A DNA stretch of 64,000 nucleotides from an uncultured Candidatus Saccharibacteria bacterium. Lineage in GTDB: Bacteria; Patescibacteriota; UBA1384; XYA2-FULL-43-10; 1-14-0-10-43-13. The notes beneath the pieces are model-generated. The model worked only from the letters and a program-made list of their open reading frames with translations, did no database searches and was not told the DNA's origin. The position numbers and the translations under genes are program-made. Shown one piece after another: positions 2,116 through 60,878 of this stretch (the stretch's first letter is position 1; the number at the start of each line of letters is the position of its first letter). Where the stretch lies: assembly GCA_964543385.1 (NCBI GenBank), contig CAZIYE010000001.1, forward strand, positions 486,755 to 550,754, in the 5' to 3' direction.

Positions 2116-3159
2116 ATGTTAAAAAATGTTATTTTAGAAAATTTCCGCAATCATTCTAAATATGAAATTGATTTAGGAAACACAACTATTTTGATAGGTC
2201 CAAATGGCATTGGTAAAAGTAATATATTAGAAGCCATTTCGGTTTTATCTTCTTGCCGTTCTTTTCGAGAGGAAGATAAAAAAAATCTAGTATCAAACGA
2301 AGAGGATTTCTGCCGTATAAGAGGTGATAATCTTGAAGTCTTTATACAAAAGAATCCCACGCTTTTGCTCAGAGCTAAAGAGAACGGAATATTTAAAAAA
2401 AAGTCATTATTCATAGGACTATTAAGAAGTGTTGTCTTTTCTCCCGAGACAATGTTATTGGCGACCGGTAGCCCAAGAACGAGAAGGCGATTTTTAGATT
2501 TGATGATATCTCAAAGAAATCAGGAATATCTTCGTGCCCTGATTTCTTACGAGAAAATTAGAGCACAACGCAACTCTCTTCTTCAGAGAATTAAAGAGAG
2601 GCAGGCTAGTGATAAAGAATTATCATTTTGGGATGATGGTTTAATTGCAGAAGGGACCACCATTATTAGGGAGAGAGAAGGGGCTGTTTCTCTTTTGAAC
2701 AGCCTTATCAGTGATATCTATGGTAATATTTCTGGTGTAAAAGACGACTCCTTATCAATTATATATCAGAAAAGTGAAGGATTTGAATATAACATTAGGG
2801 AATGTCATCAAAAAGAGATTTGGCAAGGCTGCACGCTTTTTGGTCCTCATCGTGATGATTTTATTATTAGTTTAAACGGATTGAACATAGCAAACTTTGC
2901 TTCGAGAGGTGAAATAAGAAGTGCAGTTCTAGCAATCAAAATTGCTGAGTTGGAATTTCTGAAGATAGGAAATAATAGCTCCCCAATTTTGCTTCTAGAT
3001 GATGTATATTCGGAATTTGATGAAGAACGAAGAGAACATCTTAACCAGATAGTAAAAAACTACCAAAGTGTTGTTACTACAACTGATATGAGTCATTTAT
3101 CTAAACAATTATTAGACAATGCTAAGATAGTAGAAATGAGTAAAAGTGGAAAAAATTGA
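2116..3159 (+). CDS. recF: DNA replication and repair protein RecF (SMC-like ATPase)
   Basis: The N-terminus MLKNVILENFRNHSKYEIDLGNTTILIGPNGIGKSNILEAISVL carries the Walker A GPNGIGKS. C-terminal 'LLLDDVYSEFDEERR' is the Walker B/D-loop. Its position after dnaN is canonical. Confidence 0.9.
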   Translation: MLKNVILENFRNHSKYEIDLGNTTILIGPNGIGKSNILEAISVLSSCRSFREEDKKNLVSNEEDFCRIRGDNLEVFIQKNPTLLLRAKENGIFKKKSLFIGLLRSVVFSPETMLLATGSPRTRRRFLDLMISQRNQEYLRALISYEKIRAQRNSLLQRIKERQASDKELSFWDDGLIAEGTTIIREREGAVSLLNSLISDIYGNISGVKDDSLSIIYQKSEGFEYNIRECHQKEIWQGCTLFGPHRDDFIISLNGLNIANFASRGEIRSAVLAIKIAELEFLKIGNNSSPILLLDDVYSEFDEERREHLNQIVKNYQSVVTTTDMSHLSKQLLDNAKIVEMSKSGKN

Positions 3160-3433: not shown

Positions 3434-6400
3434 CTAGAATCCGATATGGGTCCAGGCAACTGTTTGAGGATTTTGCCATATGCCCATGCGGGTATCACTT
3501 TCACATCCGTTACCTTTTTTTGATCCACAAATACCACCGCATGAGATTGAGTCGTTTCCTAATCTGGGCTGGCACATATTCACCGTTATCATCCCTGCTT
3601 GATCAAAATAATCTACATCTTCTTTTCGGCCTGTCATAATCTGGATTGGATATATCGGCTCATTGTCAGTTGTATTATATTTCTCGTAATTTTGGATCCT
3701 CATCATATTTTCTATCAATTTTCTTGCCTTATTCTGAGAAGCCTCAACCATTTTCTTTTTGAGTAGTTCGTTTATGTTGTTATTTTGCTTGATTTGTCCG
3801 CCCCATACTCCCATACCAGTTGTATCATTTATCTTTGGCTGAGGAGCTTCAATCTTTGGATAATATCCATCAGCAGTACAGTAATAGTAAATTTTTTGAC
3901 CCAAAAGATATCCTGCCAAAGCTATAACTACTGCTGCTGTCCACCCCACCGGACCAAGACCAAGCAAAGGCGCGACCACGAGATTATAAACAGCCACAGT
4001 TATCAAAGGAGTCAGGGTGCCAGGGATCATTCCCAAGCTATCTTCTACTCCCGCGATTTGCTTGTCTAAAAGCTTTTCTACTGCAATTGATACAATTTTG
4101 TATACCACTAATGTTTCCGCAGCAGTAAAAGCTTGTTTTGCTGCATCTTTGGCTTCTGCTAAGTCAGAGATCTTATTTAATTCCATAAACTCTTTAGCGT
4201 TGCTCGACAGTTGAGCAATATCTTTCACTCTTGAAATCTCTTCATATATCTTCCAAGACTTATAAAGATCATAACCAAGTTTAAATATTTCAAGAGACTG
4301 TCCAGCTTTAAGGCCCAGTGTTTTATCTGCCCAAGTAAAAAGCTTTGTCGTAATAACAGTAGTTAATACCCCCCCCACAGTTGGCAGAGACATAGTTGAA
4401 CCATCAGCTACAATTGTATTATGTGTTGTGCTATCACCTTTAACAATGTTATCTAGAGTTATTGATTTCAAGCCCCAGTCGCCGGTACCGACACCGACAA
4501 GAAGTCCTTTGGCCAAATCTCCACTTATTGGGAAGCCAAACCATTCCTCGGAATTATCTGAGAGGAAGTTGCTGAAGAAATCAAATCCATTACCACTTGC
4601 AAACGTTGTAAAGGCATCTTTATCTCCGGCCACAAAATCCTTAGCAAATTTTGCTACCTGGATCCATTCGTCGACATTTTTAATTGCCTCAAAATTTTTG
4701 CCTAGTAAATGGCCATTTGTAAGGCCTGTTTTAATATATCTGGCAAGGGCAGCTGCCTTTATCTCAGCATTACCCTGAAGCAGGTCTCTGGCCATGCCTG
4801 GGTAAGAGTTCTCGTCTAATTTCCAAAGAGCAATATCGAGCATCTTGAATTGGAGATTATCCAAAGAAGCTTTTCTTATTGATTTCTGTACCGTTGTTAG
4901 TAATTCTCCATTTTTGGGAGTAAAGTTTGCACCGCTTGGTTGATAATAAGATTCTGGATTAGAAAGTCTGTCCAATCTGCCTTCTGGGTCTCCATTGTTT
5001 TTATTATATTCAGAAACACATTTATTATATTGGTCTCCACTCGCTTGGTTGGTCGATTTCTGGCAGGCCGCTGGAGCGGCTGCATTATTGCTCACAATGC
5101 TTGTATTTAACTCGTCGATCTTACTTTGCAAATTCTCCGGCGAATAATTATATTGTTCATCAACTTGATTAGTTACTGATGTTGAAGTCGATGTTTCAGT
5201 ATAATTTTTCCCCAGAGAATCGATCAAGGCATCACCGAAATTGCCGCTACCTGTTTTTGGGCAATTATCACCATTACATACCTTTCTTGTTTCCGGATTA
5301 CTGTAAATACCATTAACATCAACCCAAGCCGCCCTCTGATATGCTTCGACATCAGGCGCCCCTATTATAGAAGTTTTTATGTCATCATAGGCTATGCGCA
5401 TCTCTTGTGGAATTGCAGTCTTACACTCGTCGTCTCCATTTGCTGAGCAGTGACTTTTCCTTATATTGTCTATAGGAGCCATAACATAATTAACTCCTAG
5501 AGAAATCGCTGCAATTTGGAAATACTTCATATCCCCACTAACTAGATTAGCGATATCTTCCAAAGGCATATCAACGCCGACTCTTATCTCTTTATTATTG
5601 TAATTTGCCTTAACGTTATATATAAAATCGTGAATTTTATCACTCAATACTTCTTTACCCCATGCGACGATGTCCTCTTTAAACGATCCGTCAACATTTC
5701 CCGAAGGATTTTGGGAGATTGCGGCCTTGCAGATATTATATCGATCGTTGATCTCCTTGCTGAGGGTGGTTCTGGCCTGTTGGACTTCAGTGAGCGCAAC
5801 CTTTAAATCTTCCTGCCATTTTTTATATTCGCTAGAGTTAATATAATCATCCGTTTTTTGCCCATTCTTTGAAACAGGCTTCTGTTTTTCAAGTTCGGCA
5901 AGCTTGGCTTCTGCATTATGCAGACTAGTATCAAGCGGCGATACGGTAGGGTCCGAACTTGCTTCATTTAAACAGTCTTTTGTCTGTCCTGTCGGGCCAA
6001 AAGAAACATGAACAACGCGACTATACAATCCCGTAAAAGAAGCAGCTTTTGAAGAATCAAGCCCAAATTGGTAGTCTATTTTCTGCGCACCAATTTCCAT
6101 CAAAATAGTTCCTGAGTTCATTGGATCAGCAATAATTCTTTGGAAGGTTCCCTCAGGCAAGTTTGCTCTTTCATCAAGCTGAAAAGTGAATATCTGATTT
6201 AAATGATCATATAACTTATCCCACTTCCCATACCATTCGTCTGTTGCCGAACCAGTTCGACAAACTTTTTGTCCGTCGGTTTCGATTATTTTCCCCTGGC
6301 ACTTGAAAATATTATTTAAGTTCTTAACAAGAGTAAGAGCTGTCTCTGACTGATTTTGGTCTAAACCAAGGCTTTCTCCTATTTTGCTACCAACAAGTTT

Positions 6401-28867: not shown

Positions 28868-29004
28868 GGCCTTGTTTCTATTAATGGGGTATTCTGGAAA
28901 TTGAATAAGTATATCAAAAATAACACAAATTGTCAAGAGGCTAATTTGCCAACTTTATGTCTTAATATCTAAGAGTTCTTATTTCTGCCACTTTATAATT
29001 ATAT

Positions 29005-32705: not shown

Positions 32706-33335
32706 ATGGTCACCACTATCATTGATTTTTTAGCAAATGTTGTTGTTTCGACAATCGATTTTACAGGCTATTTTGGAGTTTTCTTTCTGATGCTTGTAGA
32801 AAGTTGCGGCATCCCGATGCCCTCGGAGGTGATCATGCCATTTTCGGGTTTTTTGGTGGCTGATGGGCGAATGTCTTTTTGGTTAATCGTGTTGGCTGGT
32901 ACTTTTGGTAATCTCGTTGGCTCGTGGCTAGGCTATTGGATAGGAGCAAAGGGAGGGAGACCTCTTATCGAAAAATATGGCAAATATATCCTTATCTCTA
33001 AGCATGATCTAGATTTAGCTGATAAGTGGTTCTCTAAATATGGAGAGTGGACGGTTTTCTTTGGCCGTCTATTGCCTGTGATTCGTACTTATATCTCTTT
33101 CCCAGCGGGGATCGCCAAGATGAATTTTAAGACTTTTTCTGTTTATACCTTCTGGGGAGCATTACCTTGGACAGCACTTTTCGCTTGGCTTGGTGTGAAG
33201 ATGGGTGCAAACTGGGAGATGATCCGCCAAAAGCTCCATACGTTTGATATGTCGATTGCCGTGCTAGTGGTCGTTTGCTTAGTACTATATATTTGGAGAC
33301 ATATCAGAATAATCCAAAAAGAGAAGTCTCAATAA
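32706..33335 (+). CDS. DedA/SNARE-associated family membrane protein
   Basis: 'YFGVFFLMLVESCGIPMPSEVIMPFSGFLV' is the typical DedA N-terminal motif (E..G.P.PsE). The 209-aa product has 4-5 predicted TM. Confidence 0.85.
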   Translation: MVTTIIDFLANVVVSTIDFTGYFGVFFLMLVESCGIPMPSEVIMPFSGFLVADGRMSFWLIVLAGTFGNLVGSWLGYWIGAKGGRPLIEKYGKYILISKHDLDLADKWFSKYGEWTVFFGRLLPVIRTYISFPAGIAKMNFKTFSVYTFWGALPWTALFAWLGVKMGANWEMIRQKLHTFDMSIAVLVVVCLVLYIWRHIRIIQKEKSQ

Positions 33336-33397
33336 TGATCATAAATATGTGAGAGATAATAAAAATAACCCTTGATCTATCAAGGGTTATTTTTATG

Positions 33398-34135
33398 TTA
33401 GAGCTGGGTTGTTGTGGGTGGGATAGGAGATTGGACGGGAGCAGCTGGATTTACCGGAGGATTTGTTGTGGTTATAGATGGTACAGGCTGGCTATCGATT
33501 TGTGCCGGGGGTGTGACCACTGTTGGTTCTACACCGGTAGTAGGAGCTAAGGGATTAGTATCAATAACAGGGGCAGGAGACATAGCAGGAGTTGGGGAAA
33601 ACGATGGTGCTATTGTCTGCTCAGCGATTGGGGTTTCTGGTGCGAAGAGATCGTCAAGACCATCATCGACTATTGGACTTGTCTTAATTTCTGGTACAGA
33701 TAAATCCTCCTGTGGCGGTTGGATCGTTGTTACTATTGGAGTCTCTGGCATAGTAGCATTATTTGTACTTGTTTCTATGTCGGCATGGGGCGTCAAGAGT
33801 GTAGTATCGTTGGTCGATGTATCTGAAATAGTTGTGTTTGATGTGTCGGTAGTAACACTTGATGAGCTTGTGGACACATCCAGTGGATTGCTATCTTTAT
33901 TAACTATTGGATCATCATTTTTAACATCATCCTCAACATCTTCGGGGATAATCATTTTATGGTCTATGCCAGTAAGCTTCTCGAGATGGTGCACCCCTAC
34001 AATTATTGCAGCCGGTTTACCATTCTTTGTTATTACATAAAGATCCTCACTGTCGGTGACAGCATCTATTATTTTATTTAAAGAATCTCTTACTTCCGTA
34101 ATAGGCAATATTTTTTCGACATCCACGTCCAACAT
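33398..34135 (-). CDS. Phd/YefM-type antitoxin-like N-terminal domain fused to a long Thr/Pro/Ser-rich low-complexity C-terminal region
   Basis: The N-terminus 'ILPITEVRDSLNKIIDAVTDSEDLYVITKNGKPAAIIVGVHHLEKL' matches the YefM/Phd fold signature (tEaR..L..ll..v..ge.v.It..GkpvAvlv). The following ~170 aa are rich in T, P, S, D and I. No partner toxin gene is adjacent. Confidence 0.55.
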   Translation of the reverse strand: MLDVDVEKILPITEVRDSLNKIIDAVTDSEDLYVITKNGKPAAIIVGVHHLEKLTGIDHKMIIPEDVEDDVKNDDPIVNKDSNPLDVSTSSSSVTTDTSNTTISDTSTNDTTLLTPHADIETSTNNATMPETPIVTTIQPPQEDLSVPEIKTSPIVDDGLDDLFAPETPIAEQTIAPSFSPTPAMSPAPVIDTNPLAPTTGVEPTVVTPPAQIDSQPVPSITTTNPPVNPAAPVQSPIPPTTTQL

Positions 34136-46253: not shown

Positions 46254-48272
46254 ATGATATTCCACCCAAAAGTATCCATCATAATTCCTGTCTATAACGG
46301 AAAGAACTATTTGCGTGAAGCTATTGATAGTGCACTTGCCCAGACGTACGATAATTTTGAGGTAGTAGTAGTAAATGACGGCTCTATCGACGACGGGGCA
46401 ACCGAGAAGATAGCTTTATCGTACGGAAGTAAAATACGCTATTTTAGTAAGCCAAATGGCGGAGTTTCCTCTGCGCTCAACCTTGGGATAAAGAATATGG
46501 AAGGGGAGTATTTTTCATGGCTAAGCCATGATGATGCTTATTTCAATGACAAAATTGAATCTCAAGTAGAATTTCTCTCCAAAGAAAAGAACAAGGAAGC
46601 GGTCATTTTTAGTGACTATGACCTGATGAACGAACATTCCAAAACTTTTGCAAGCGTTAAAGTAAAGGAATTTCCGGTTAATAAATTGAAACTAGAGCTG
46701 ATTCAGGCAAGTCCAATACACGGTTGTACTCTTTTGATAGCCAAATCATTATTTGCAAAAGCAGGTCTCTTTGATGAAAAACTACGTACATCACAGGATT
46801 ATGACTTATGGTTTAAAATGGCAGATTATACTGATTTTGTGCACTTAAAGAAAAAGTTAGTGAAGTCGAGAATCCATAGTGAGCAAGGTACCCAATCTCT
46901 TTCAGACGTTATGATAAGAGAATCAGAGTCTATGTACCAAAGAGAGGTAAAAAGATTATTCGTCGGTAACAAAGATTATTCTTCGCTTGAATTAATAAAA
47001 TGTGCTGATGGATTGATCAAAAAGTATTGTTTCAAATCCGCTGCCCTTGTAGTAAGTTATGTTCCCCTTAAGAGAATAAATCTCTTAGTCGCCAAAAAAT
47101 TACTTTCTTACGGTTTTGATTTATTGTTTTATAAAGCAATAGCCGTAAAACAAAAACTATTTCCAGTAAAGAAGAAACAAAAAACTATATTAATAATTAC
47201 TCCAGGATTTTATCCTTTACCTGGCGGACTTGCCGAGCAAAGCTATCTTCTTGGAAAAGAATTTGTCAGAAGAGGCTATAAGGTTGATATTCTGACTGAA
47301 AGACTCAAGAGCAATCTCGAAAAAAGGGAGATTATAGATGGTATGGATGTCTATAGAATGAGTCATATCAAAAAAAGAAATATTTTTGGCTTGTTAAAGT
47401 TATTTTTTGAGACCACTTTCTTTGTCATAAAAAACCGATCGAAATATTCATTTTGCATTATCAGAACCATCAGTCTGTATGCAGTAATAATTGGTTTCTT
47501 GAAATATATCAGAGTGGTTACATGTAAAACTTATATATCTGCTGAAACTGGCGGGGAGAATGATGAAATTAAAGAAATAGGAGATAGGCCCTTCTATAGA
47601 ATAATAGTTTTCTTTCTCAACAAAAATGATTATATCAATAGCAACAATAATGATAATACTAATCATTATCTCCAGATAGGGATTATCAAAGACAAGATAA
47701 CACTTATTTATAATGGCATAGATGTTGCCGGCTACAAAGAGTCTAGCTATCCCAAGGAAATAAATAATTTTGTTTTTCTGGCAGAACTCAACGTTGGCAA
47801 GGGGATAAAAGAGCTTCTCGAAGCCTTCAAAAAGCTGTTAGAGAGGTTTTCTGGCAAAAAACTATACATTGGTGGGTATGGTCAGATGGAGAACTATATA
47901 AAGGATTTCGTTAAGGAGAATAAATTAGAGAAAAATATTTTCTTCAAAGGATATATCAAGAAAGAAAATAAAAAATCATTTTTTGAAAAAGGCGATTGTT
48001 TCGTTTTTCCATCTTATTCGGAGGGTTTTGGTATAGTGACGGCTGAAGCCATAAAGTATAAAAGAGCCCTAATCACTACGAAGGTTGCGGATCTTGAGAA
48101 AATATATGGAAATCACGTTCTATATTGCGATATCAAAAATGTTGATATCTTGCTAGATATTATGACAAAGGCTATTACCGATTATGATCTTAATAAGATG
48201 AATTATGATAAGATAATCTCTAAGATTGATATTAGAACCACTACAGCAAAGATCGAAAAGCTATTTGTATAA
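46254..48272 (+). CDS. Bifunctional glycosyltransferase (N-terminal GT2 plus C-terminal GT4-like)
   Basis: The N-terminus 'VSIIIPVYNGKNYLREAIDSALAQTYDNFEVVVVNDGSIDDG' is canonical GT2. The C-terminal 'FVFPSYSEGFGIVTAEAIKYKRALITTKV' is the GT4 EX7E-type motif. Confidence 0.75.
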   Translation: MIFHPKVSIIIPVYNGKNYLREAIDSALAQTYDNFEVVVVNDGSIDDGATEKIALSYGSKIRYFSKPNGGVSSALNLGIKNMEGEYFSWLSHDDAYFNDKIESQVEFLSKEKNKEAVIFSDYDLMNEHSKTFASVKVKEFPVNKLKLELIQASPIHGCTLLIAKSLFAKAGLFDEKLRTSQDYDLWFKMADYTDFVHLKKKLVKSRIHSEQGTQSLSDVMIRESESMYQREVKRLFVGNKDYSSLELIKCADGLIKKYCFKSAALVVSYVPLKRINLLVAKKLLSYGFDLLFYKAIAVKQKLFPVKKKQKTILIITPGFYPLPGGLAEQSYLLGKEFVRRGYKVDILTERLKSNLEKREIIDGMDVYRMSHIKKRNIFGLLKLFFETTFFVIKNRSKYSFCIIRTISLYAVIIGFLKYIRVVTCKTYISAETGGENDEIKEIGDRPFYRIIVFFLNKNDYINSNNNDNTNHYLQIGIIKDKITLIYNGIDVAGYKESSYPKEINNFVFLAELNVGKGIKELLEAFKKLLERFSGKKLYIGGYGQMENYIKDFVKENKLEKNIFFKGYIKKENKKSFFEKGDCFVFPSYSEGFGIVTAEAIKYKRALITTKVADLEKIYGNHVLYCDIKNVDILLDIMTKAITDYDLNKMNYDKIISKIDIRTTTAKIEKLFV

Positions 48273-55204: not shown

Positions 55205-55554
55205 AACAATTTGGAAATAAAATTTGGTGGTTGATCTTAATATATCTAGCTGTCGGGTACCTTTTCCCTGTGATTCTAAGGCAGAGATTTATGATTGTGG
55301 TTCTATTCGTATCTACTATGCTGATTCTCAGTGGATTGTCTTTAAAGGAAAAAAGCCGTTTTACTGCAGTGGTTGCAATTGCGGCTGCGTTTTTTCTAAA
55401 GATCATCCCTTCGCCTTACCCAGTCTTGGCAGACACGGGATTGCCAATGGCCATTAACTTATTTCTGACAATGTTGGTAGTATTCCTTAGCTGTATTTTA
55501 GCTGCCAGAATATCCGACATAGTCTTGTTGAGAATTCAAAGGACAGAAAAATAA
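55201..55554 (+). CDS. Small membrane protein (117 aa, 3-4 TM), translationally coupled to the upstream gene
   Basis: An ATGA start/stop overlap with 53786-55204 suggests coupling. The product is hydrophobic throughout. Its 3' end overlaps the convergent 55498-57111 gene by 57 nt, so it is uncertain. Confidence 0.35.
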   Translation: MKQFGNKIWWLILIYLAVGYLFPVILRQRFMIVVLFVSTMLILSGLSLKEKSRFTAVVAIAAAFFLKIIPSPYPVLADTGLPMAINLFLTMLVVFLSCILAARISDIVLLRIQRTEK

Positions 55555-57111
55555 TTCGTGATGAACTTTGAATAGATAAACCTCATTTATTTGGCTTTTT
55601 GAATTTAGAACTGTCGTCAAAAAGCGTTTTTTCTGATATTTATCAGCCATGCCAAGAGTTACCTCTGATGGCAGCCAGCCGGTCTTTGATTCCAAAAGGT
55701 ATATATAGTCGAACTGGTAGATTGACCCATCTGCTTCGGGAACCCAGTAGTTATATTTAATTTTCCATTTTGGCAGGAGCGCATGTGAATAGAAATTATA
55801 TGTCACAAGCAAAACTTTGCCTGGCTTTTGCTTATTTAAATAGTTAATAACATCCATATCGGCGTTTGTTACGCGTATCATTGGTTCATATGAAACAGCA
55901 CTGTCTAGCCTTAATTTAAATGGCAAAAAAAGAGAGACAGCCATGACAATCATGCCAAGTATACACAGGATTTTATTGGTTTTAATTCTTTCTAATAAAT
56001 AATAAACTCCACCTCCAGCCAGGATAGCTAAAGGCACGATCATATCACGAGCTGGTCGTTCTGGGTTGCTCAGGAATGGCAATCGCGATGCGACGAATAA
56101 AATAACTATCCAAACCATCAATATAATTAATGGGGCAGATATCTTCCTTTGTTTTAGATAAATAAAGGGCATCGATATTAGTCCAAGAAGTGCATACAAA
56201 CTAAAATACCGTCCGGGATTGCTGATATATCCTCTTAGAGACCACATTGCTTCTGGGTTTGACCCGCCCAATATCTTAAAGAACGGAAAGGTGGAATTTA
56301 TTTGGATCATTGTGCTAGACAGTGCTTTAGCGGATGCAAAAATTCCCGTCTTAGTAAAAGCATAAAAAAATGCCAGATACACTAAAAGATTTAATCCTAG
56401 AAGCAGAACTCCTTTTTTGACATTCCATTTATTTCTAATCCAATAAATTATAATAAATGTTGGCAAAGACACCAATATAATAGCAATAAGATAAAAAGTG
56501 GTAGTGTGATGGGTAATTGGTATCAAAAGGGTAAAAATAATTGATAGTATAATAAATTTATTTCTGACCTTATGATTAATAGCTTTTATGGCACAAACAA
56601 TAAAAGTCAAAATAAGCGGAAGTATAATTTGGGCAGCAATTATATTCGGATATCCTCCATCATTGAGCAGTTGGATTGGTGTTTTAGCAATAAAAGCGTA
56701 GAGAATAAAGGATACCAAGCCTGCCTCGACACCAAAAACAACGTAACCGAGAACAAATATTGCGACACCAGATAGGACAAGTATTGCGGGCGCACTCCAC
56801 TTAATTGCCTCCAGGAGATCTACATTAAATAAGATGGCGCTCTTTGCTACTAGATAATGGTAGGCCGGAGGATAACCGCCACTTTTCAAAACCTCAAAAA
56901 AATTACCTGTTCCATCATAAAATGGTCTGGCCATCCAATAGTGGTTCATCGGATCGTCACCAGCAGGAACAGCATATTGATACAGGACTAAGCCGTAATA
57001 TTGGATAAAGGCTAGGACAACCAGGCCAAGCGATAAAAGATACCAATATATTCTCTTGCTCTGTATTAACTTTTTAATGAAGTCGATCATTTGTTTTATT
57101 ATATCAGCCAT
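55498..57111 (-). CDS. Polytopic membrane protein, GT-C-like candidate (paralog of 53786-55204)
   Basis: The 537-aa product has >=12 TM. The N-terminal loop motif 'AGDDPMNHYWMARPFYDG' parallels the paralog. Confidence 0.45.
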   Translation of the reverse strand: MADIIKQMIDFIKKLIQSKRIYWYLLSLGLVVLAFIQYYGLVLYQYAVPAGDDPMNHYWMARPFYDGTGNFFEVLKSGGYPPAYHYLVAKSAILFNVDLLEAIKWSAPAILVLSGVAIFVLGYVVFGVEAGLVSFILYAFIAKTPIQLLNDGGYPNIIAAQIILPLILTFIVCAIKAINHKVRNKFIILSIIFTLLIPITHHTTTFYLIAIILVSLPTFIIIYWIRNKWNVKKGVLLLGLNLLVYLAFFYAFTKTGIFASAKALSSTMIQINSTFPFFKILGGSNPEAMWSLRGYISNPGRYFSLYALLGLISMPFIYLKQRKISAPLIILMVWIVILFVASRLPFLSNPERPARDMIVPLAILAGGGVYYLLERIKTNKILCILGMIVMAVSLFLPFKLRLDSAVSYEPMIRVTNADMDVINYLNKQKPGKVLLVTYNFYSHALLPKWKIKYNYWVPEADGSIYQFDYIYLLESKTGWLPSEVTLGMADKYQKKRFLTTVLNSKSQINEVYLFKVHHELFFCPLNSQQDYVGYSGS

Positions 57112-57146
57112 TGGGCCTAAACCAAAGATATTTGTGTGTTGCTACA

Positions 57147-57175
57147 TTGACTTATAATCAATATTATGCTATAAT
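57147..57175 (+). promoter_or_regulatory. Perfect sigma70 consensus promoter: TTGACT (57147-57152), 17-nt spacer, TATAAT (57170-57175)
   Basis: This is read directly from the sequence 'cattgacttataatcaatattatgctataatatag'. The predicted TSS at ~57182 gives a ~64-nt leader with two small hairpins (ttgctt-gcaa-aagcaa at 57184-57199; gcgag-atacc-ctcgc at 57203-57217) before the high-GC ORF. Confidence 0.6.
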
Positions 57176-57245
57176 ATAGAAGTTGCTTGCAAAAGCAACA
57201 ATGCGAGATACCCTCGCAAATTTTCAGGTGAATGAGGTAATTATA

Positions 57246-57842
57246 ATGAATGGGAAGCGTCATTGGAGTGTCACTGGACCGTCGAACGGTTGGTTGCAGG
57301 ATGGCACCGGATTAGTCAGCCCATGGGGGCAGATAATCTTCGTCACCGATGGCAAGGTGACGGAACCGCGCATCATCGATGCGGGCGGGGCGATTGTGAT
57401 CGCTGCGAATTCCCACGGCGAGATCGCCATGGTATATCGCGAGCGGTCCGTATTACCTGCATGGAGCAAGAAAGAGTCGCTCCCCATCGTGGACATGCCG
57501 GCATTCCTGGCTCGGCTCGAGGAGAATCCTCCTGAGCTCGAACTGATCCGGGCCTATACGGCTCCGGATCTCACCATTGATCAGGCTGCCATGGTAGTGG
57601 CGGCAAGATACGGCATACCCGAGGCACATGCCAGTGGTACCGAGCTTATCGGAGAAGTATTCCTGTTCGGCCATACGCCGCAGCCGAACCCTATCATCTT
57701 GCTTGGTGTGATAGGTCGCCCCGAGCTTTCCGACGGGGCGTTCTGGATGCCGGCCGCGGAAGTGAAGAAGGCCCTCGCTTCGGGAAAAATCCGCGATGCC
57801 TCCACTGGGACCGCGTTGGGCATTCATTTCGCCCAAATGTAA
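57246..57842 (+). CDS. Hypothetical protein encoded in a high-GC (>60%) island; function unknown
   Basis: A GAGGT SD lies 7 nt upstream of the ATG at 57246. The frame shows strong G/C enrichment at third codon positions (gcc, ggc, ccg, atc, gag codons dominate), unlike every other gene in the window. The product is Ala/Gly/Pro-rich (MNGKRHWSVTGPSNGWLQDGTG...GKIRDASTGTALGIHFAQM). The other six overlapping ORFs in this patch look like stop-codon-poor high-GC artefacts. Alternative in-frame starts are 57201 (ATG) and 57183 (TTG). Confidence 0.6.
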   Translation: MNGKRHWSVTGPSNGWLQDGTGLVSPWGQIIFVTDGKVTEPRIIDAGGAIVIAANSHGEIAMVYRERSVLPAWSKKESLPIVDMPAFLARLEENPPELELIRAYTAPDLTIDQAAMVVAARYGIPEAHASGTELIGEVFLFGHTPQPNPIILLGVIGRPELSDGAFWMPAAEVKKALASGKIRDASTGTALGIHFAQM

Positions 57843-57932
57843 TAGTGCGTTGGCTTGGGAGATCGCTTGTTTGCATCTCCCACCACCCCTCTTTGCTCAA
57901 ATCTTGAGCTCGAAGGCAGTGGTAATAATATT

Positions 57933-57961
57933 TTGACAATTTTGTGCGAATAGGTTATTGT
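57933..57961 (+). promoter_or_regulatory. Candidate promoter for the riboswitch-metK transcript (TTGACA, 17 nt, TATTGT)
   Basis: 'ttttgacaattttgtgcgaataggttattgt' has the -35 at 57933-57938 and the -10 at 57956-57961. It lies ~20 nt upstream of the riboswitch P1. Confidence 0.4.
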
Positions 57962-57977
57962 AACAGTACAACTTAAT

Positions 57978-58080
57978 ATATTTATCAAGAGTGGCGCGAG
58001 AGTTTTGGCTCTATGACCGCCCAGCAACCTCAAGGAAACTTGAACGGTGCTAATTCCAAGCCTCACGGCGAGATAAAACA
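57978..58080 (+). ncRNA. SAM-I (S-box) riboswitch aptamer upstream of metK
   Basis: Core elements in order are UUAUCAAGAG (P1 5' strand) and GGCG..AGAG-UUUUGG-CUCU (P3 hairpin), then AUGA..CCGCC..GCAACC and GGUGCUAAUUCC, closing with P1 3' GAUAA at 58072-58076. Spacing agrees with the Rfam SAM-I consensus as remembered. A T-run (58107-58113) follows, but no convincing terminator stem was found. Confidence 0.75.
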
Positions 58081-58136
58081 GTAAAATATCTTGCTTAACG
58101 GCAGGATTTTTTTAAAACTAAACAAAGGATAGACAA

Positions 58137-59321
58137 ATGGAAGAGCCAAAAAATAAAAAAGTAAATAATTATCTTTTTACCTCAGAATCAGTGACCGAGG
58201 GCCATCCAGATAAAATGGCTGATCAAATCTCAGATGCTATTTTAGACGAATTACTCAAAAAAGATCCACTTTCGAGGGCAGCTGTCGAAACTATGCTGAC
58301 AAACGGAGTTTGCATTATTGCTGGCGAAGTCACAACTGACGCTTATGTTGATATTGCAAAGATAGCTCGATCTGTCATCGAAGACATAGGTTATGACGGT
58401 TGTGGCTTTCACCATGCTTCCAGCGGCGTTATGACAGCAATCAAGGAACAATCATCGGATATTGCCCGTGGCGTTGATAGCTTCGAAAGAGTTGACGGCA
58501 AAATAGTAAAGGAAGATTTAGAACAATTGGGTGCCGGCGACCAAGGCTTGATGTTTGGCTATGCATGCACAGAGACCAAAGAACTTATGCCCTTGCCGAT
58601 AACTTTAGCTCATGCTCTCTGTGAGCGTTTGTCAAAAGTAAGAAAAGCAGGGATCATAATGGGCTTATATCCTGATGGAAAATCTCAAATAACCATTAAG
58701 TATAAAGATAATAAGCCGGTAAGGGTACATACAATTTTGATTGCTGCTCAGCATGAAGAGGAAAAAGATCAAAAAATCTTGCAAAAAGAGATTATTGATT
58801 TTGTTATTAAGCCGGTTCTTGCAATTTATGATCTTGGTATTGATAACGAGACTAATATTTACATCAATACTACCGGAAAGTTTGTCATAGGGGGCCCACA
58901 AGGGGATACAGGACTTACTGGCAGAAAGATAATAGTTGATACTTATGGCGGCTACTCTCGTCATGGCGGCGGTGCTTTTTCTGGCAAGGATCCTTCAAAG
59001 GTTGATAGATCTGGATCGTACATGGCTAGATGGGTAGCTAAAAGTGTGGTTGGCTCAGGTCTGGCAGAGAGATGTGAAATACAAATATCATACGCTATAG
59101 GCAAGCCAGAGCCATTATCAGTTTATGTAGATACTTTTGGAACTGGTGTCATCCCAGACTCCGAGATCAAACAGAAGATACTTGATAACTTTGATTTTAG
59201 GCCAGGTATGATAATCAAAGAACTGGATTTGCGAAGGCCTATTTATCGACAATTAGCAGCTTACGGTCATTTCGGCCGCCCGGATCTTGATCTGCCTTGG
59301 GAAAAGATTAGAAAAATATAA
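58137..59321 (+). CDS. metK: S-adenosylmethionine synthetase
   Basis: '[52 protein letters not shown]' and '[29 protein letters not shown]' are diagnostic MetK motifs. An RBS 'aaaggat' lies 6 nt upstream. Confidence 0.95.
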
Positions 59322-59444
59322 GTTCTTCATGTGAAATATTTTCCTCATGTCATTGCGGACTTGATCTGGAATCTTGAGCTCTCAGATCCTAAGTAGACGA
59401 CTTCGTTGGTTTAGGATGACAACTTTTAATTCAAATTCATAGGA

Positions 59445-60878
59445 CTATTTTGTATCAGCTTTTATAAGCGATCTAACCGATTGTAAGCTGATAATATCGA
59501 AGAGATATGCGAGAACAAAAAAGAAAGCAGCTGAAATTATCATACTCGGAATAAAATGAAGTGCTAAAATTTTTAGAATTAGAGCAAAAGCCAAAGTTAC
59601 TATTGCTATAAAAACAGTTTTTACAACATTGATGAGGTCAATTTTGAACGGTATGATTCTTCTTGTGTTATAGAGGAAAATAAAGAATAAAACAATCTCC
59701 GATATCAATGTACCGTAAGCGGCTGCCATATATGAATATTGGGGTATAAATACCAGATTGAAGATAAAATTAAAGAGTAAAATAAATGCAGAAATCTTTA
59801 ATAGCAATTTTCTCTCGTCTTTTGCTATTAAAATTTCTCCAAGCAGGATATCAAAATACAGAAAAGGCAGTGCAAGAGAAAGTATTATCAACGCCGATCC
59901 TCCGATACTATAGCTTTCGTTACTCAAGAAGGCGATTATTTCTTTTGAATAGGCGCAGGATATAGCTGCTATTGGTAGAGAAATAAGCATCATCGCTGTA
60001 AATGATTTTTCAATCAGGCTTTTTAACTGGGATGCATTATCTATACCGCGAGAGATAATCGGTTTGAGTGAATTTGCAAAATATGAACCGAAGAAGACAG
60101 TTACCTCTAAAATTTTGTAGGCTACAGAGTAAATACTAACTGCCACTGCTCCCTTGATTGCAAACAGCATAATAGTATCAAGTCTGAAGAATAGGTTATT
60201 GGCAATAAATATTATGCCCATCGGCCAAGCCAGATCAAATATCCATTTGGTAATTTTTTTCTCATAACCAATTTTGATAGGTGTAAACTTGCTGGCGAAG
60301 TACCATTTGAAGACAAAAATTAGAATGCCAGACAATGCTACCACCGAGAAGACAATCCAGAGGAAGTTGCCTTTCAGAGTCACAACTACAATTAGCGCAG
60401 CTAAGGAAATAAGCTTGCTCAAAAATTCTGCGACAGCTGAAAATTGCATCTTCAGTCGGTGTTGCAAAATCATATCCCCAATACTACCCATTAGGTTGAA
60501 GAATAGAAAACCACAAGCAATCATTATCCCAAAAACAAGATTATGGTCATTGCGATATGGTGTTAGATATATAATGGCAATTGCTGCAAGACAGGCGAGC
60601 AAAGATGAGACTAAACGTATAAAGAAAACATTCGAGATGATTCTTTTCTCGCTGGAGGGATCTTTTGAAATCTCTCTGACGGTTACGGAAAATAGACCAA
60701 GATCAGCAATGACGAGAAAATAATTTACATAAGCTGTGATTGTATTGAGATTCCCATAATCAGTGTTTGAGAGATAGTTTGTTAGGATCTTTATAGAGAT
60801 AAGGGTAAACACCAAAGTAACGATTCGTACAAGAATCTGGGAGGCCGTATTTATAAATATAGCTCTACGTTCTTTCAT
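59445..60878 (-). CDS. Wzx-like polysaccharide flippase (MOP superfamily)
   Basis: The 477-aa product has ~12-14 TM. The N-terminus 'INTASQILVRIVTLVFTLISIKILTNYLSNTDYGNLNTITAYVNYFLVIADLGL' is typical of PST/Wzx proteins. Confidence 0.8.
   Translation of the reverse strand: MKERRAIFINTASQILVRIVTLVFTLISIKILTNYLSNTDYGNLNTITAYVNYFLVIADLGLFSVTVREISKDPSSEKRIISNVFFIRLVSSLLACLAAIAIIYLTPYRNDHNLVFGIMIACGFLFFNLMGSIGDMILQHRLKMQFSAVAEFLSKLISLAALIVVVTLKGNFLWIVFSVVALSGILIFVFKWYFASKFTPIKIGYEKKITKWIFDLAWPMGIIFIANNLFFRLDTIMLFAIKGAVAVSIYSVAYKILEVTVFFGSYFANSLKPIISRGIDNASQLKSLIEKSFTAMMLISLPIAAISCAYSKEIIAFLSNESYSIGGSALIILSLALPFLYFDILLGEILIAKDERKLLLKISAFILLFNFIFNLVFIPQYSYMAAAYGTLISEIVLFFIFLYNTRRIIPFKIDLINVVKTVFIAIVTLAFALILKILALHFIPSMIISAAFFFVLAYLFDIISLQSVRSLIKADTK

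Follow-up and report, generated by a model that had tools for sequence, protein, structure and literature searches.

How a single gene rich in guanine and cytosine (GC) came to lie in the AT-rich genome of an uncultured Candidatus Saccharibacteria bacterium is the question raised by a 64,000-nt stretch of contig CAZIYE010000001.1 (assembly GCA_964543385.1, positions 486,755 to 550,754 of the forward strand), the whole of which is referred to here as the window. A sequence-only reading of this DNA had proposed the recent horizontal acquisition of a single-gene cassette, and the proposal is upheld by the deviant composition of the gene, by its recovery in independent assemblies, by an empty site in the closest sampled relative and by its absence from a second, more distant one. 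The explanation that we favour, with good confidence, is that about 0.79 kb of foreign DNA carrying one complete gene has inserted between two divergent native genes, one encoding a DUF6541-like membrane protein and the other being metK with its S-adenosylmethionine (SAM) riboswitch, and that the product is a Nudix protein that is probably non-hydrolysing. The insert and its gene are as follows.

57134 to 57932, no strand assigned: insert relative to the empty site of the closest relative (L004), about 0.79 kb, with junctions placed to within about 15 nt either way (pairwise alignment)
57246 to 57842, plus strand: open reading frame (ORF) of 198 aa, predicted to encode a divergent ADP-ribose pyrophosphatase (ADPRase)-like Nudix homologue with a degenerate Nudix box at about residues 102-124 (GC at the first, second and third codon positions, GC1, GC2 and GC3, of 61, 47 and 67%; homology searches)

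Composition of the island and its empty site in relatives

Measured in successive 100-nt intervals, GC content climbs from about 31% (57150-57249) to 56-63% over 57250-57850 and is back to 34% by 57900-57999; every interval across 57250-57900 lies at 54-63%, and the sharp onset coincides with the start codon. The jump noticed in the sequence-only reading is therefore real and abrupt, although its figure of over 60% for the island was slightly high and that of about 36% for the background slightly low, the sliding-window mean of the 64 kb being 38.0 ± 3.8%. The 600-nt interval starting at 57251 is the GC peak of the whole window (58.7%), and the 600 nt from 57250 to 57849 score z = 5.5 against that mean; the ORF itself has a GC content of 58.5%, and 57250-57910 one of 57.9%. 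The longest ORF over the island, on the plus strand, runs to 57842 from either a TTG at 57183 (219 aa) or an ATG at 57246 (198 aa). The latter was chosen as the start because a GAGG motif lies 8 nt upstream and because the N terminus of the homologue P0002, described below, aligns to that methionine. Six to seven ORFs of 50 aa or more overlap one another across the island on the two strands, in agreement with the six reported earlier, and the five or six short ones that remain are as expected of stop-poor, GC-rich DNA.

The contrast with the rest of the window is greatest at third codon positions. GC3 is 33-35% in three neighbouring genes, and averages 33.9 ± 2.9% across the window's 41 remaining ORFs that are 150 aa or longer, none of which exceeds 44%, as against 67% in the island ORF; hence the gene stands out as a genomic islet by both GC (z = 5.5) and GC3. 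Its protein is 12.1% Ala, 10.1% Gly and 7.6% Pro, compared with 6.9, 6.3 and 3.6% for the window's ORFs, and is depleted in Lys and Asn relative to them. Both the GC3 enrichment of a 198-219-aa ORF and the abundance of these three residues had been read from the sequence, and comparison of codon composition with the remaining window leaves the island far outside the native range. The second-highest GC3 among the long ORFs belongs to one at 32706-33332 on the plus strand (GC3 44%, GC 42%), a far milder case, which sits in a stretch of strong positive GC skew (33001-34000, skew 0.24). A gene of the F420_ligase family just outside the window was considered as a second transfer and rejected, as its composition is native (GC 37%, GC3 28%).

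Relatives of the locus were sought with the 537-aa protein of the left neighbour. The GTDB species set yielded one, L004, an uncultured Candidatus Saccharibacteria metagenome-assembled genome from the same study with 78% amino acid identity in that gene, where surface protein, Wzx-type flippase, metK and membrane protein genes lie in the same order as in the window. The spacer between metK and the membrane protein gene is 265 nt in L004, as opposed to 1,025 nt in the window; it has no island and no GC anomaly, and keeps the same SAM riboswitch. The flanks were compared by a custom affine-gap pairwise alignment and by eye. Homology on the left stops at 57133 (..AAAGATATTT), and on the right restarts at the metK promoter TTGACA (57933), with 91% identity from 57949 through the riboswitch; the insert begins 22 nt from the start codon of the DUF6541-like gene, and its other end abuts the metK -35 box. 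Read from this alignment, the inserted part appears to take in an AT-rich promoter and leader beyond the GC-rich ORF.

A metagenome scan with the 537-aa protein alone gave no match, and with an alignment it gave the distant L009 and an uninformative contig, L010. In L009, which has 48% amino acid identity and serves as the outgroup, the flippase and membrane protein genes are immediate neighbours, and neither an island nor a GC anomaly is present. The island is thus missing from the syntenic site in both relatives, which contradicts the universal vertical inheritance within the clade that the sequence-only reading had weighed against its own proposal. Two losses would explain this pattern, an empty ingroup and outgroup together with so deviant a composition, far less parsimoniously than does insertion in the lineage of the window.

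The arrangement is reproduced in assemblies made independently from single sequencing runs. Positions 57000-58200 of the window are identical, base for base, in the Logan assemblies of runs SRR12261223, -24, -26 and -27 (at least five contigs), four contigs encode the exact island protein, and in every matching contig the genes to the left belong to the glycan locus and the one to the right is metK.

A Nudix relative with a degenerate box

Protein searches covered about 15 billion proteins in all, a set that takes in every NCBI genome, all sequenced Actinobacteria and the Logan assemblies from those sequencing runs. The island protein matched no Pfam, NCBIfam, PHROGs or PADLOC model and no PDB sequence, and a word-indexed search of 5.8 billion clusters returned only the protein itself; tblastn against phages and plasmids, a scan of IMG/VR, PHROGs and PADLOC likewise gave no relatives of the gene. 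Exhaustive phmmer comparison with 1.84 billion representatives found one true relative, P0002 (225 aa), with 33% identity over residues 14-197 (E = 3.5e-8; 2e-16 by pairwise BLASTP). A third phmmer match, P0003, was rejected as spurious: it is a repeat-rich immunoglobulin-like surface protein aligning over a 40-residue stretch only. Word-indexed searches with P0002, and with a profile of the two proteins, added nothing further.

It is P0002 that reveals the family. It scores 29.2 bits against PF00293 (NUDIX; cut-off 21.1) and has a complete Nudix box, G-YAKKL-E-TATETGL-RE-SR-EE-V-G-L (G-x5-E-x7-RE-x2-EE-xG); all of its PDB matches are Nudix enzymes, the top one being Thermus Ndx2 (2yvm, E = 8.8e-4). 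The two-protein profile aligns to the Ndx2 segment of 2yvm with an hhalign probability of 91.8% (E = 7e-7). The motifs that mark the NudF/Ndx2-like branch outside the box, a PQP loop and a G-x-I-x-D-A-x-T helix, are present in the island protein itself: T-P-Q-P-N (144-148) aligns to H-P-Q-P-S of Ndx2, and S-G-K-I-R-D-A-S-T (179-187) to K-G-E-I-Q-D-A-S-T in its C-terminal helix. Judged by this transitive homology, the island protein is a member of the Nudix superfamily, nearest to the branch of ADP-ribose and nucleoside-diphosphate (NDP)-sugar pyrophosphatases (Ndx2/NudF-like). Family searches of the kind that the sequence-only reading had looked to have hence supplied one relative and a superfamily, though no taxonomy for the donor.

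The box itself is degenerate. In every alignment the residues G, E, RE and EE are replaced, by A103, L109, V117-V118 and A120-R121, so that of G-x5-E-x7-R-E-U-x-E-E-x-G-U only the terminal G123-I124 is retained. The catalytic metal ions of Nudix enzymes are held by the glutamates in RE-x2-EE; with these metal-binding residues replaced, canonical hydrolysis should be lost. The island protein would then no longer hydrolyse its substrate by the canonical mechanism, and probably either binds a ligand without hydrolysing it or does nothing.

Among solved structures, the best match for the two-member family is the Ndx2 ADP-ribose pyrophosphatase of Thermus thermophilus (PDB 2yvm, 2yvn, 2yvo and 2yvp), of the NudF/ADPRase branch. 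Alignment to it extends over the Nudix domain, the PQP loop that follows the box, and the helix at the C terminus (A-x-G-x-I-x-D-A-S-T). However, identity is very low, 26% over 103 columns; where Ndx2 has its catalytic G/E/RE/EE the island protein reads A/L/VV/AR, and it appears to be one residue short in the box helix. No activity should be assumed. The effector domain of NrtR, the C-terminal domain of MutY and the NUDT9-H domain of TRPM2 are Nudix scaffolds with degenerate boxes that serve in ligand recognition rather than catalysis. The island protein resembles them in combining a Nudix scaffold with a degenerate box; unlike them, it has no fused DNA-binding or other domain, the relationship is at the level of the superfamily only, and binding would be an argument by analogy. 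A further parallel is Gmm/WcaH (NudD), a GDP-mannose mannosyl hydrolase encoded in surface-polysaccharide (colanic-acid) clusters, which retains its catalytic residues. The genes of both family members are similarly embedded among glycosyltransferase genes, placed to act on NDP-sugar pools, but there is no specific sequence similarity (no NCBIfam match), and the parallel is purely positional.

P0002 is encoded at 1340-2017 of L003 (JGI 3300050015, Ga0494705_0001862), in a block within L003:180-5097 that has 41-47% GC, compared with about 30% around it, and also encodes a DDE transposase along with a HAD hydrolase. The block lies directly beside a cluster of glycosyltransferase genes (about 30% GC). 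This shared setting, a positional argument, suggests that the family is connected with NDP-sugar metabolism. At the right edge of the block, a 74-aa ORF (2786-3010, GC 37%) shares 73.5% identity with residues 9-76 of a 672-aa protein of the window with GT2 and GT1 glycosyltransferase domains (46254-48272), and the ORF that follows, in a different frame, continues from residue 73 at just 40% identity. From its sequence, this edge looks like a recombination junction with a frameshift inside a glycosyltransferase gene, the incoming DNA having come from a Saccharibacteria-type glycan locus like that of the window.

Origin of the insert

The GC content of the donor was estimated with the regressions of Muto and Osawa in the form used by Lawrence and Ochman: the donor genome would have about 56% GC judged by GC1 and about 59% judged by GC3. 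The agreement of the two estimates indicates that there has been no amelioration toward the 34% GC3 of the recipient, and hence that the gene arrived recently. With GC3 still at the donor's equilibrium, the protein most likely diverged, and lost its Nudix box, before the transfer took place. Natural competence is documented in Saccharibacteria (PMC10633639). The likeliest way in is natural transformation and then illegitimate recombination, a route favoured because no mobility gene, tRNA or inverted repeat accompanies the insert.

Several observations weigh against this account. The searches name no donor, and the sole distant homologue itself lies in a foreign-looking patch of a low-GC genome. 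The assignment to a family leans on that single intermediate sequence: the island protein does not match PF00293 even at E <= 10, nor any NCBIfam model, and AlphaFold models reached a mean predicted confidence (pLDDT) of 34.8 with one sequence and 35.6 with two, too low for a fold search. Non-canonical catalysis by the island protein is also conceivable on the sequence. A deletion in L004, the one close relative, is excluded through composition and the outgroup rather than through a dense phylogeny. Finally, the promoter and leader part of the insert, 112 nt at 33% GC, cannot share the high-GC source of the ORF, and no other copy of its sequence was found anywhere in the window. The history of the insert would hence have been multi-step, or else this part is native: either the cassette was domesticated earlier in another AT-rich genome or vector, or the promoter and leader represent a fast-evolving native spacer.

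The sequence-only reading had guessed at an actinobacterial host or a proteobacterium as the donor. This suggestion is, if anything, weakened, since no sequenced organism and no assembly from the same runs contains another recognisable homologue. In its stronger form, DNA of the epibiont's actinobacterial host was taken up and fixed in the symbiont; we consider this unlikely, although it merits the closest hearing of the alternatives. Island GC, at about 58%, falls in the lower part of the actinobacterial range, whereas its GC3 of 67% would be low for typical hosts of the Actinomyces type. Cultivated Saccharibacteria grow on Actinobacteria and are competent to take up DNA (PMC10633639), yet McLean et al. 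found no strong signal of transfer from host to TM7x (PMC7427843). A recent host source should also have left a close match, but P0002 is the sole homologue in about 15 billion proteins and itself comes from a genome of about 30% GC. That nothing similar occurs in the protein, phage, plasmid and IMG/VR sets argues against any well-sampled or co-assembled host as the recent source.

Slightly less probable, in our judgement, is that the gene is the cargo of a mobile element, either a cassette mobilised by an insertion sequence or something like a phage moron, which moves between the glycan loci of low-GC genomes of the CPR type (CPR, candidate phyla radiation). Morons are defined as autonomous units of promoter, gene and terminator, and the island has the same layout: one gene of deviant GC with its own promoter and 3' hairpins, lying between conserved genes at a site that is empty in a relative. 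Unlike morons, it is outside any prophage, is without mobility functions, and has a promoter and leader as AT-rich as the recipient. It also speaks in favour that the gene for P0002 has a DDE transposase as its immediate neighbour, the GC-elevated block around them ending at the apparent recombination junction within a glycosyltransferase gene. ATATTT and TTGAC do occur at both junctions of the insert; they may reflect microhomology or the duplication of a short target, yet in AT-rich sequence they carry no significance. A search of the borders turned up no terminal inverted repeats, other direct or inverted repeats there being unconvincing, and there are no transposase, integrase, tRNA or prophage genes within ±10 kb; hence neither mobility genes, nor terminal inverted repeats, nor a significant target duplication mark the island as a mobile element, and PHROGs and the phage, plasmid and IMG/VR sets contain no relatives.

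Much less plausible is vertical inheritance of an old gene that the relatives have since lost. Only two relatives, at 78% and 48% amino acid identity, are available for comparison, which leaves some room for such losses; however, long residence in a genome of 38% GC is incompatible with a GC3 still at 67%, and the gene is missing from ingroup, outgroup and all other Saccharibacteria proteins in the databases. A chimeric join, in which a high-GC fragment of another organism was falsely built into the contig, had been offered as the alternative in the sequence-only reading, and has still less in its favour. The left GC boundary is abrupt and all of the data are short-read metagenome assemblies, but two false joins would be needed within one 265-nt spacer whose synteny is perfect on both sides, the ORF is framed by a properly placed promoter, Shine-Dalgarno sequence and hairpins, and the same junctions and neighbours were assembled independently from at least four runs. 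We regard a chimera as excluded at the level of assemblies, short of the raw reads themselves. GC-rich islands in AT-rich genomes are often structured RNAs, and the 685-nt region folds somewhat better than shuffled sequence (z = -2.6 over 20 shuffles, which is unremarkable), but a non-coding RNA in place of a gene can be dismissed, there being no Rfam match at the gathering threshold or at E <= 1, a coding pattern of GC by codon position, and an open frame of 198 codons with protein homology over its full length. An engineered resistance cassette, for which a consensus promoter and an intergenic site might speak, was also rejected: the ORF corresponds to no marker and to no known family, and the sequences derive from environmental metagenomes.

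Signals, neighbours and possible role

The recent insertion of a single foreign gene thus remains the explanation that we favour, and the gene is accompanied by signals of its own.

57147 to 57175, plus strand: sigma-70-type promoter TTGACT-N17-TGcTATAAT with extended -10, ahead of the island gene (11/12 consensus matches plus TG)
57182 to 57199 and 57202 to 57218, plus strand: two leader hairpins, the first at the predicted 5' end of the mRNA (minimum free energy -17.7 kcal/mol, z = -6.7)
57234 to 57237, plus strand: Shine-Dalgarno sequence GAGG, 8 nt before the ATG (direct reading of the sequence)
57857 to 57923, plus strand: two 3' hairpins, 57857-57881 and 57882-57923 (jointly -31.7 kcal/mol, z = -3.65)

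The TTGACT-N17-TATAAT promoter described earlier is indeed present, with the TG extension in addition, and is the sole site on the plus strand of the window with at least 11 of the 12 consensus matches. Over the whole window, three sites with 11/12 matches were seen where 3.0 are expected by chance, and two of these with the TG extension where 0.22 are expected. That this one is more than a chance match is argued by its placement, 71 nt upstream of the ATG and on the correct strand. The other site with at least 11/12 matches and TG is TTGACA-N17-TATACT at 28908-28936 on the minus strand.

The two-hairpin leader also proved as described, none of 200 shuffled sequences being equally stable over 57182-57218; these hairpins score as terminator-like sites, too, when read on the minus strand. 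The GGGAGAT...ATCTCCC hairpin reported after the stop codon exists, but one base from where it had been placed (57857-57881), and the second hairpin, at 57882-57923, was absent from that description. After the latter comes a U-rich stretch, UAAUAAUAUUUU. Neither was called by a simple terminator scan, as they have no strong T-run; they form a probable terminator or insulator before the metK promoter.

The genes and signals on either side are native.

55498 to 57111, minus strand: DUF6541-like polytopic membrane protein, left neighbour (ORF and homology)
57933 to 57961, plus strand: metK promoter TTGACA-N17-TATTGT, conserved in L004 (promoter scan and alignment)
57979 to 58107, plus strand: SAM-I riboswitch (57979-58079; RF00162, 59.6 bits) and its terminator (58088-58107), outside the insert
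58137 to 59321, plus strand: metK, S-adenosylmethionine synthetase, right neighbour (PF00438, PF02772 and PF02773)

About 25 kb around the island constitute a surface-glycan locus, with genes for GT2 and GT4 transferases, an FnlA/CapD-type dehydratase, an RmlD-like reductase, a UDP-N-acetylglucosamine 2-epimerase, a Wzx-type flippase and Wzy_C. In L004 the DUF6541-like gene is only 27 nt from the metK -35 box. The insert has displaced the native promoter region of this gene by about 0.8 kb; its promoter would thus now lie in the AT-rich part of the insert, or its transcription would cross the island antisense. A weak candidate, TTGCAA-N18-CATAAT, is found at 57192-57163 on the minus strand, overlapping the island promoter back to back.

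The spacer differs between relatives in other respects. In L009 (3560-7867, corresponding to 55498-60878 of the window), the flippase and DUF6541-like genes have neither metK nor a SAM riboswitch between them, and next comes a gene for adenosylhomocysteinase. As the window and L004 do have metK and its riboswitch here, on the opposite strand, this appears to be a site of repeated gene gain or loss. The SAM-I riboswitch of L004 (L004:6835-6969) has about 32 nt extra within the aptamer, after window position 58029, and still scores above the gathering threshold. L010, an unrelated contig reached through a weak protein match, has an int-alpA RNA (RF02996, 62.7 bits) and a tRNA at 5713-5781, which are irrelevant to the island.

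Taken as a sequence of events, the insertion would have occurred after the window's lineage split from its closest sampled relative, inside the surface-glycan locus, its coding part coming from a donor of about 56-59% GC and, unameliorated as it is, arriving recently in evolutionary terms. The result would be a self-contained unit of extended -10 promoter, 63-nt leader, Shine-Dalgarno sequence, 198-aa ORF and two 3' hairpins. The cassette would be transcribed from its own strong promoter, the 5' stem-loop may stabilise the mRNA, and the 3' hairpins may curb transcription running on into the promoter and riboswitch of metK. The cytoplasmic Nudix-superfamily product could then bind a nucleoside-diphosphate-X ligand, such as an NDP-sugar of the glycan pathway or ADP-ribose, without cleaving it; it may equally well be a functionless or neutral passenger.

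A bolder reading, which we offer as speculation with little weight behind it, is that ADPRase-like Nudix proteins of this type form a tiny, otherwise unsampled family whose gene travels, as an accessory, from one surface-glycan locus to another among low-GC, CPR-type genomes, and that the member found here is a dead 'pseudo-Nudix' which, under a strong promoter, binds a molecule of the NDP-sugar or ADP-ribose type. Were this so, the protein might tune the synthesis of the epibiont's surface glycans or sequester a nucleotide signal during interaction with the host, to which an origin in that host would add a further twist.

As a phenomenon, the island is of a known kind, an ordinary horizontally acquired islet; what is unusual is the near-orphan gene, its degenerate Nudix box and so clean an empty-site comparison in an epibiont. 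It represents a well-documented recent gain of a single gene by the reduced genome of a host-dependent Saccharibacteria bacterium, and bears on how competent, ultra-small epibionts acquire genes and on whether incoming DNA lands preferentially in the surface-glycan locus. In its degenerate catalytic motif, the gene provides a possible case of a Nudix scaffold repurposed for binding.

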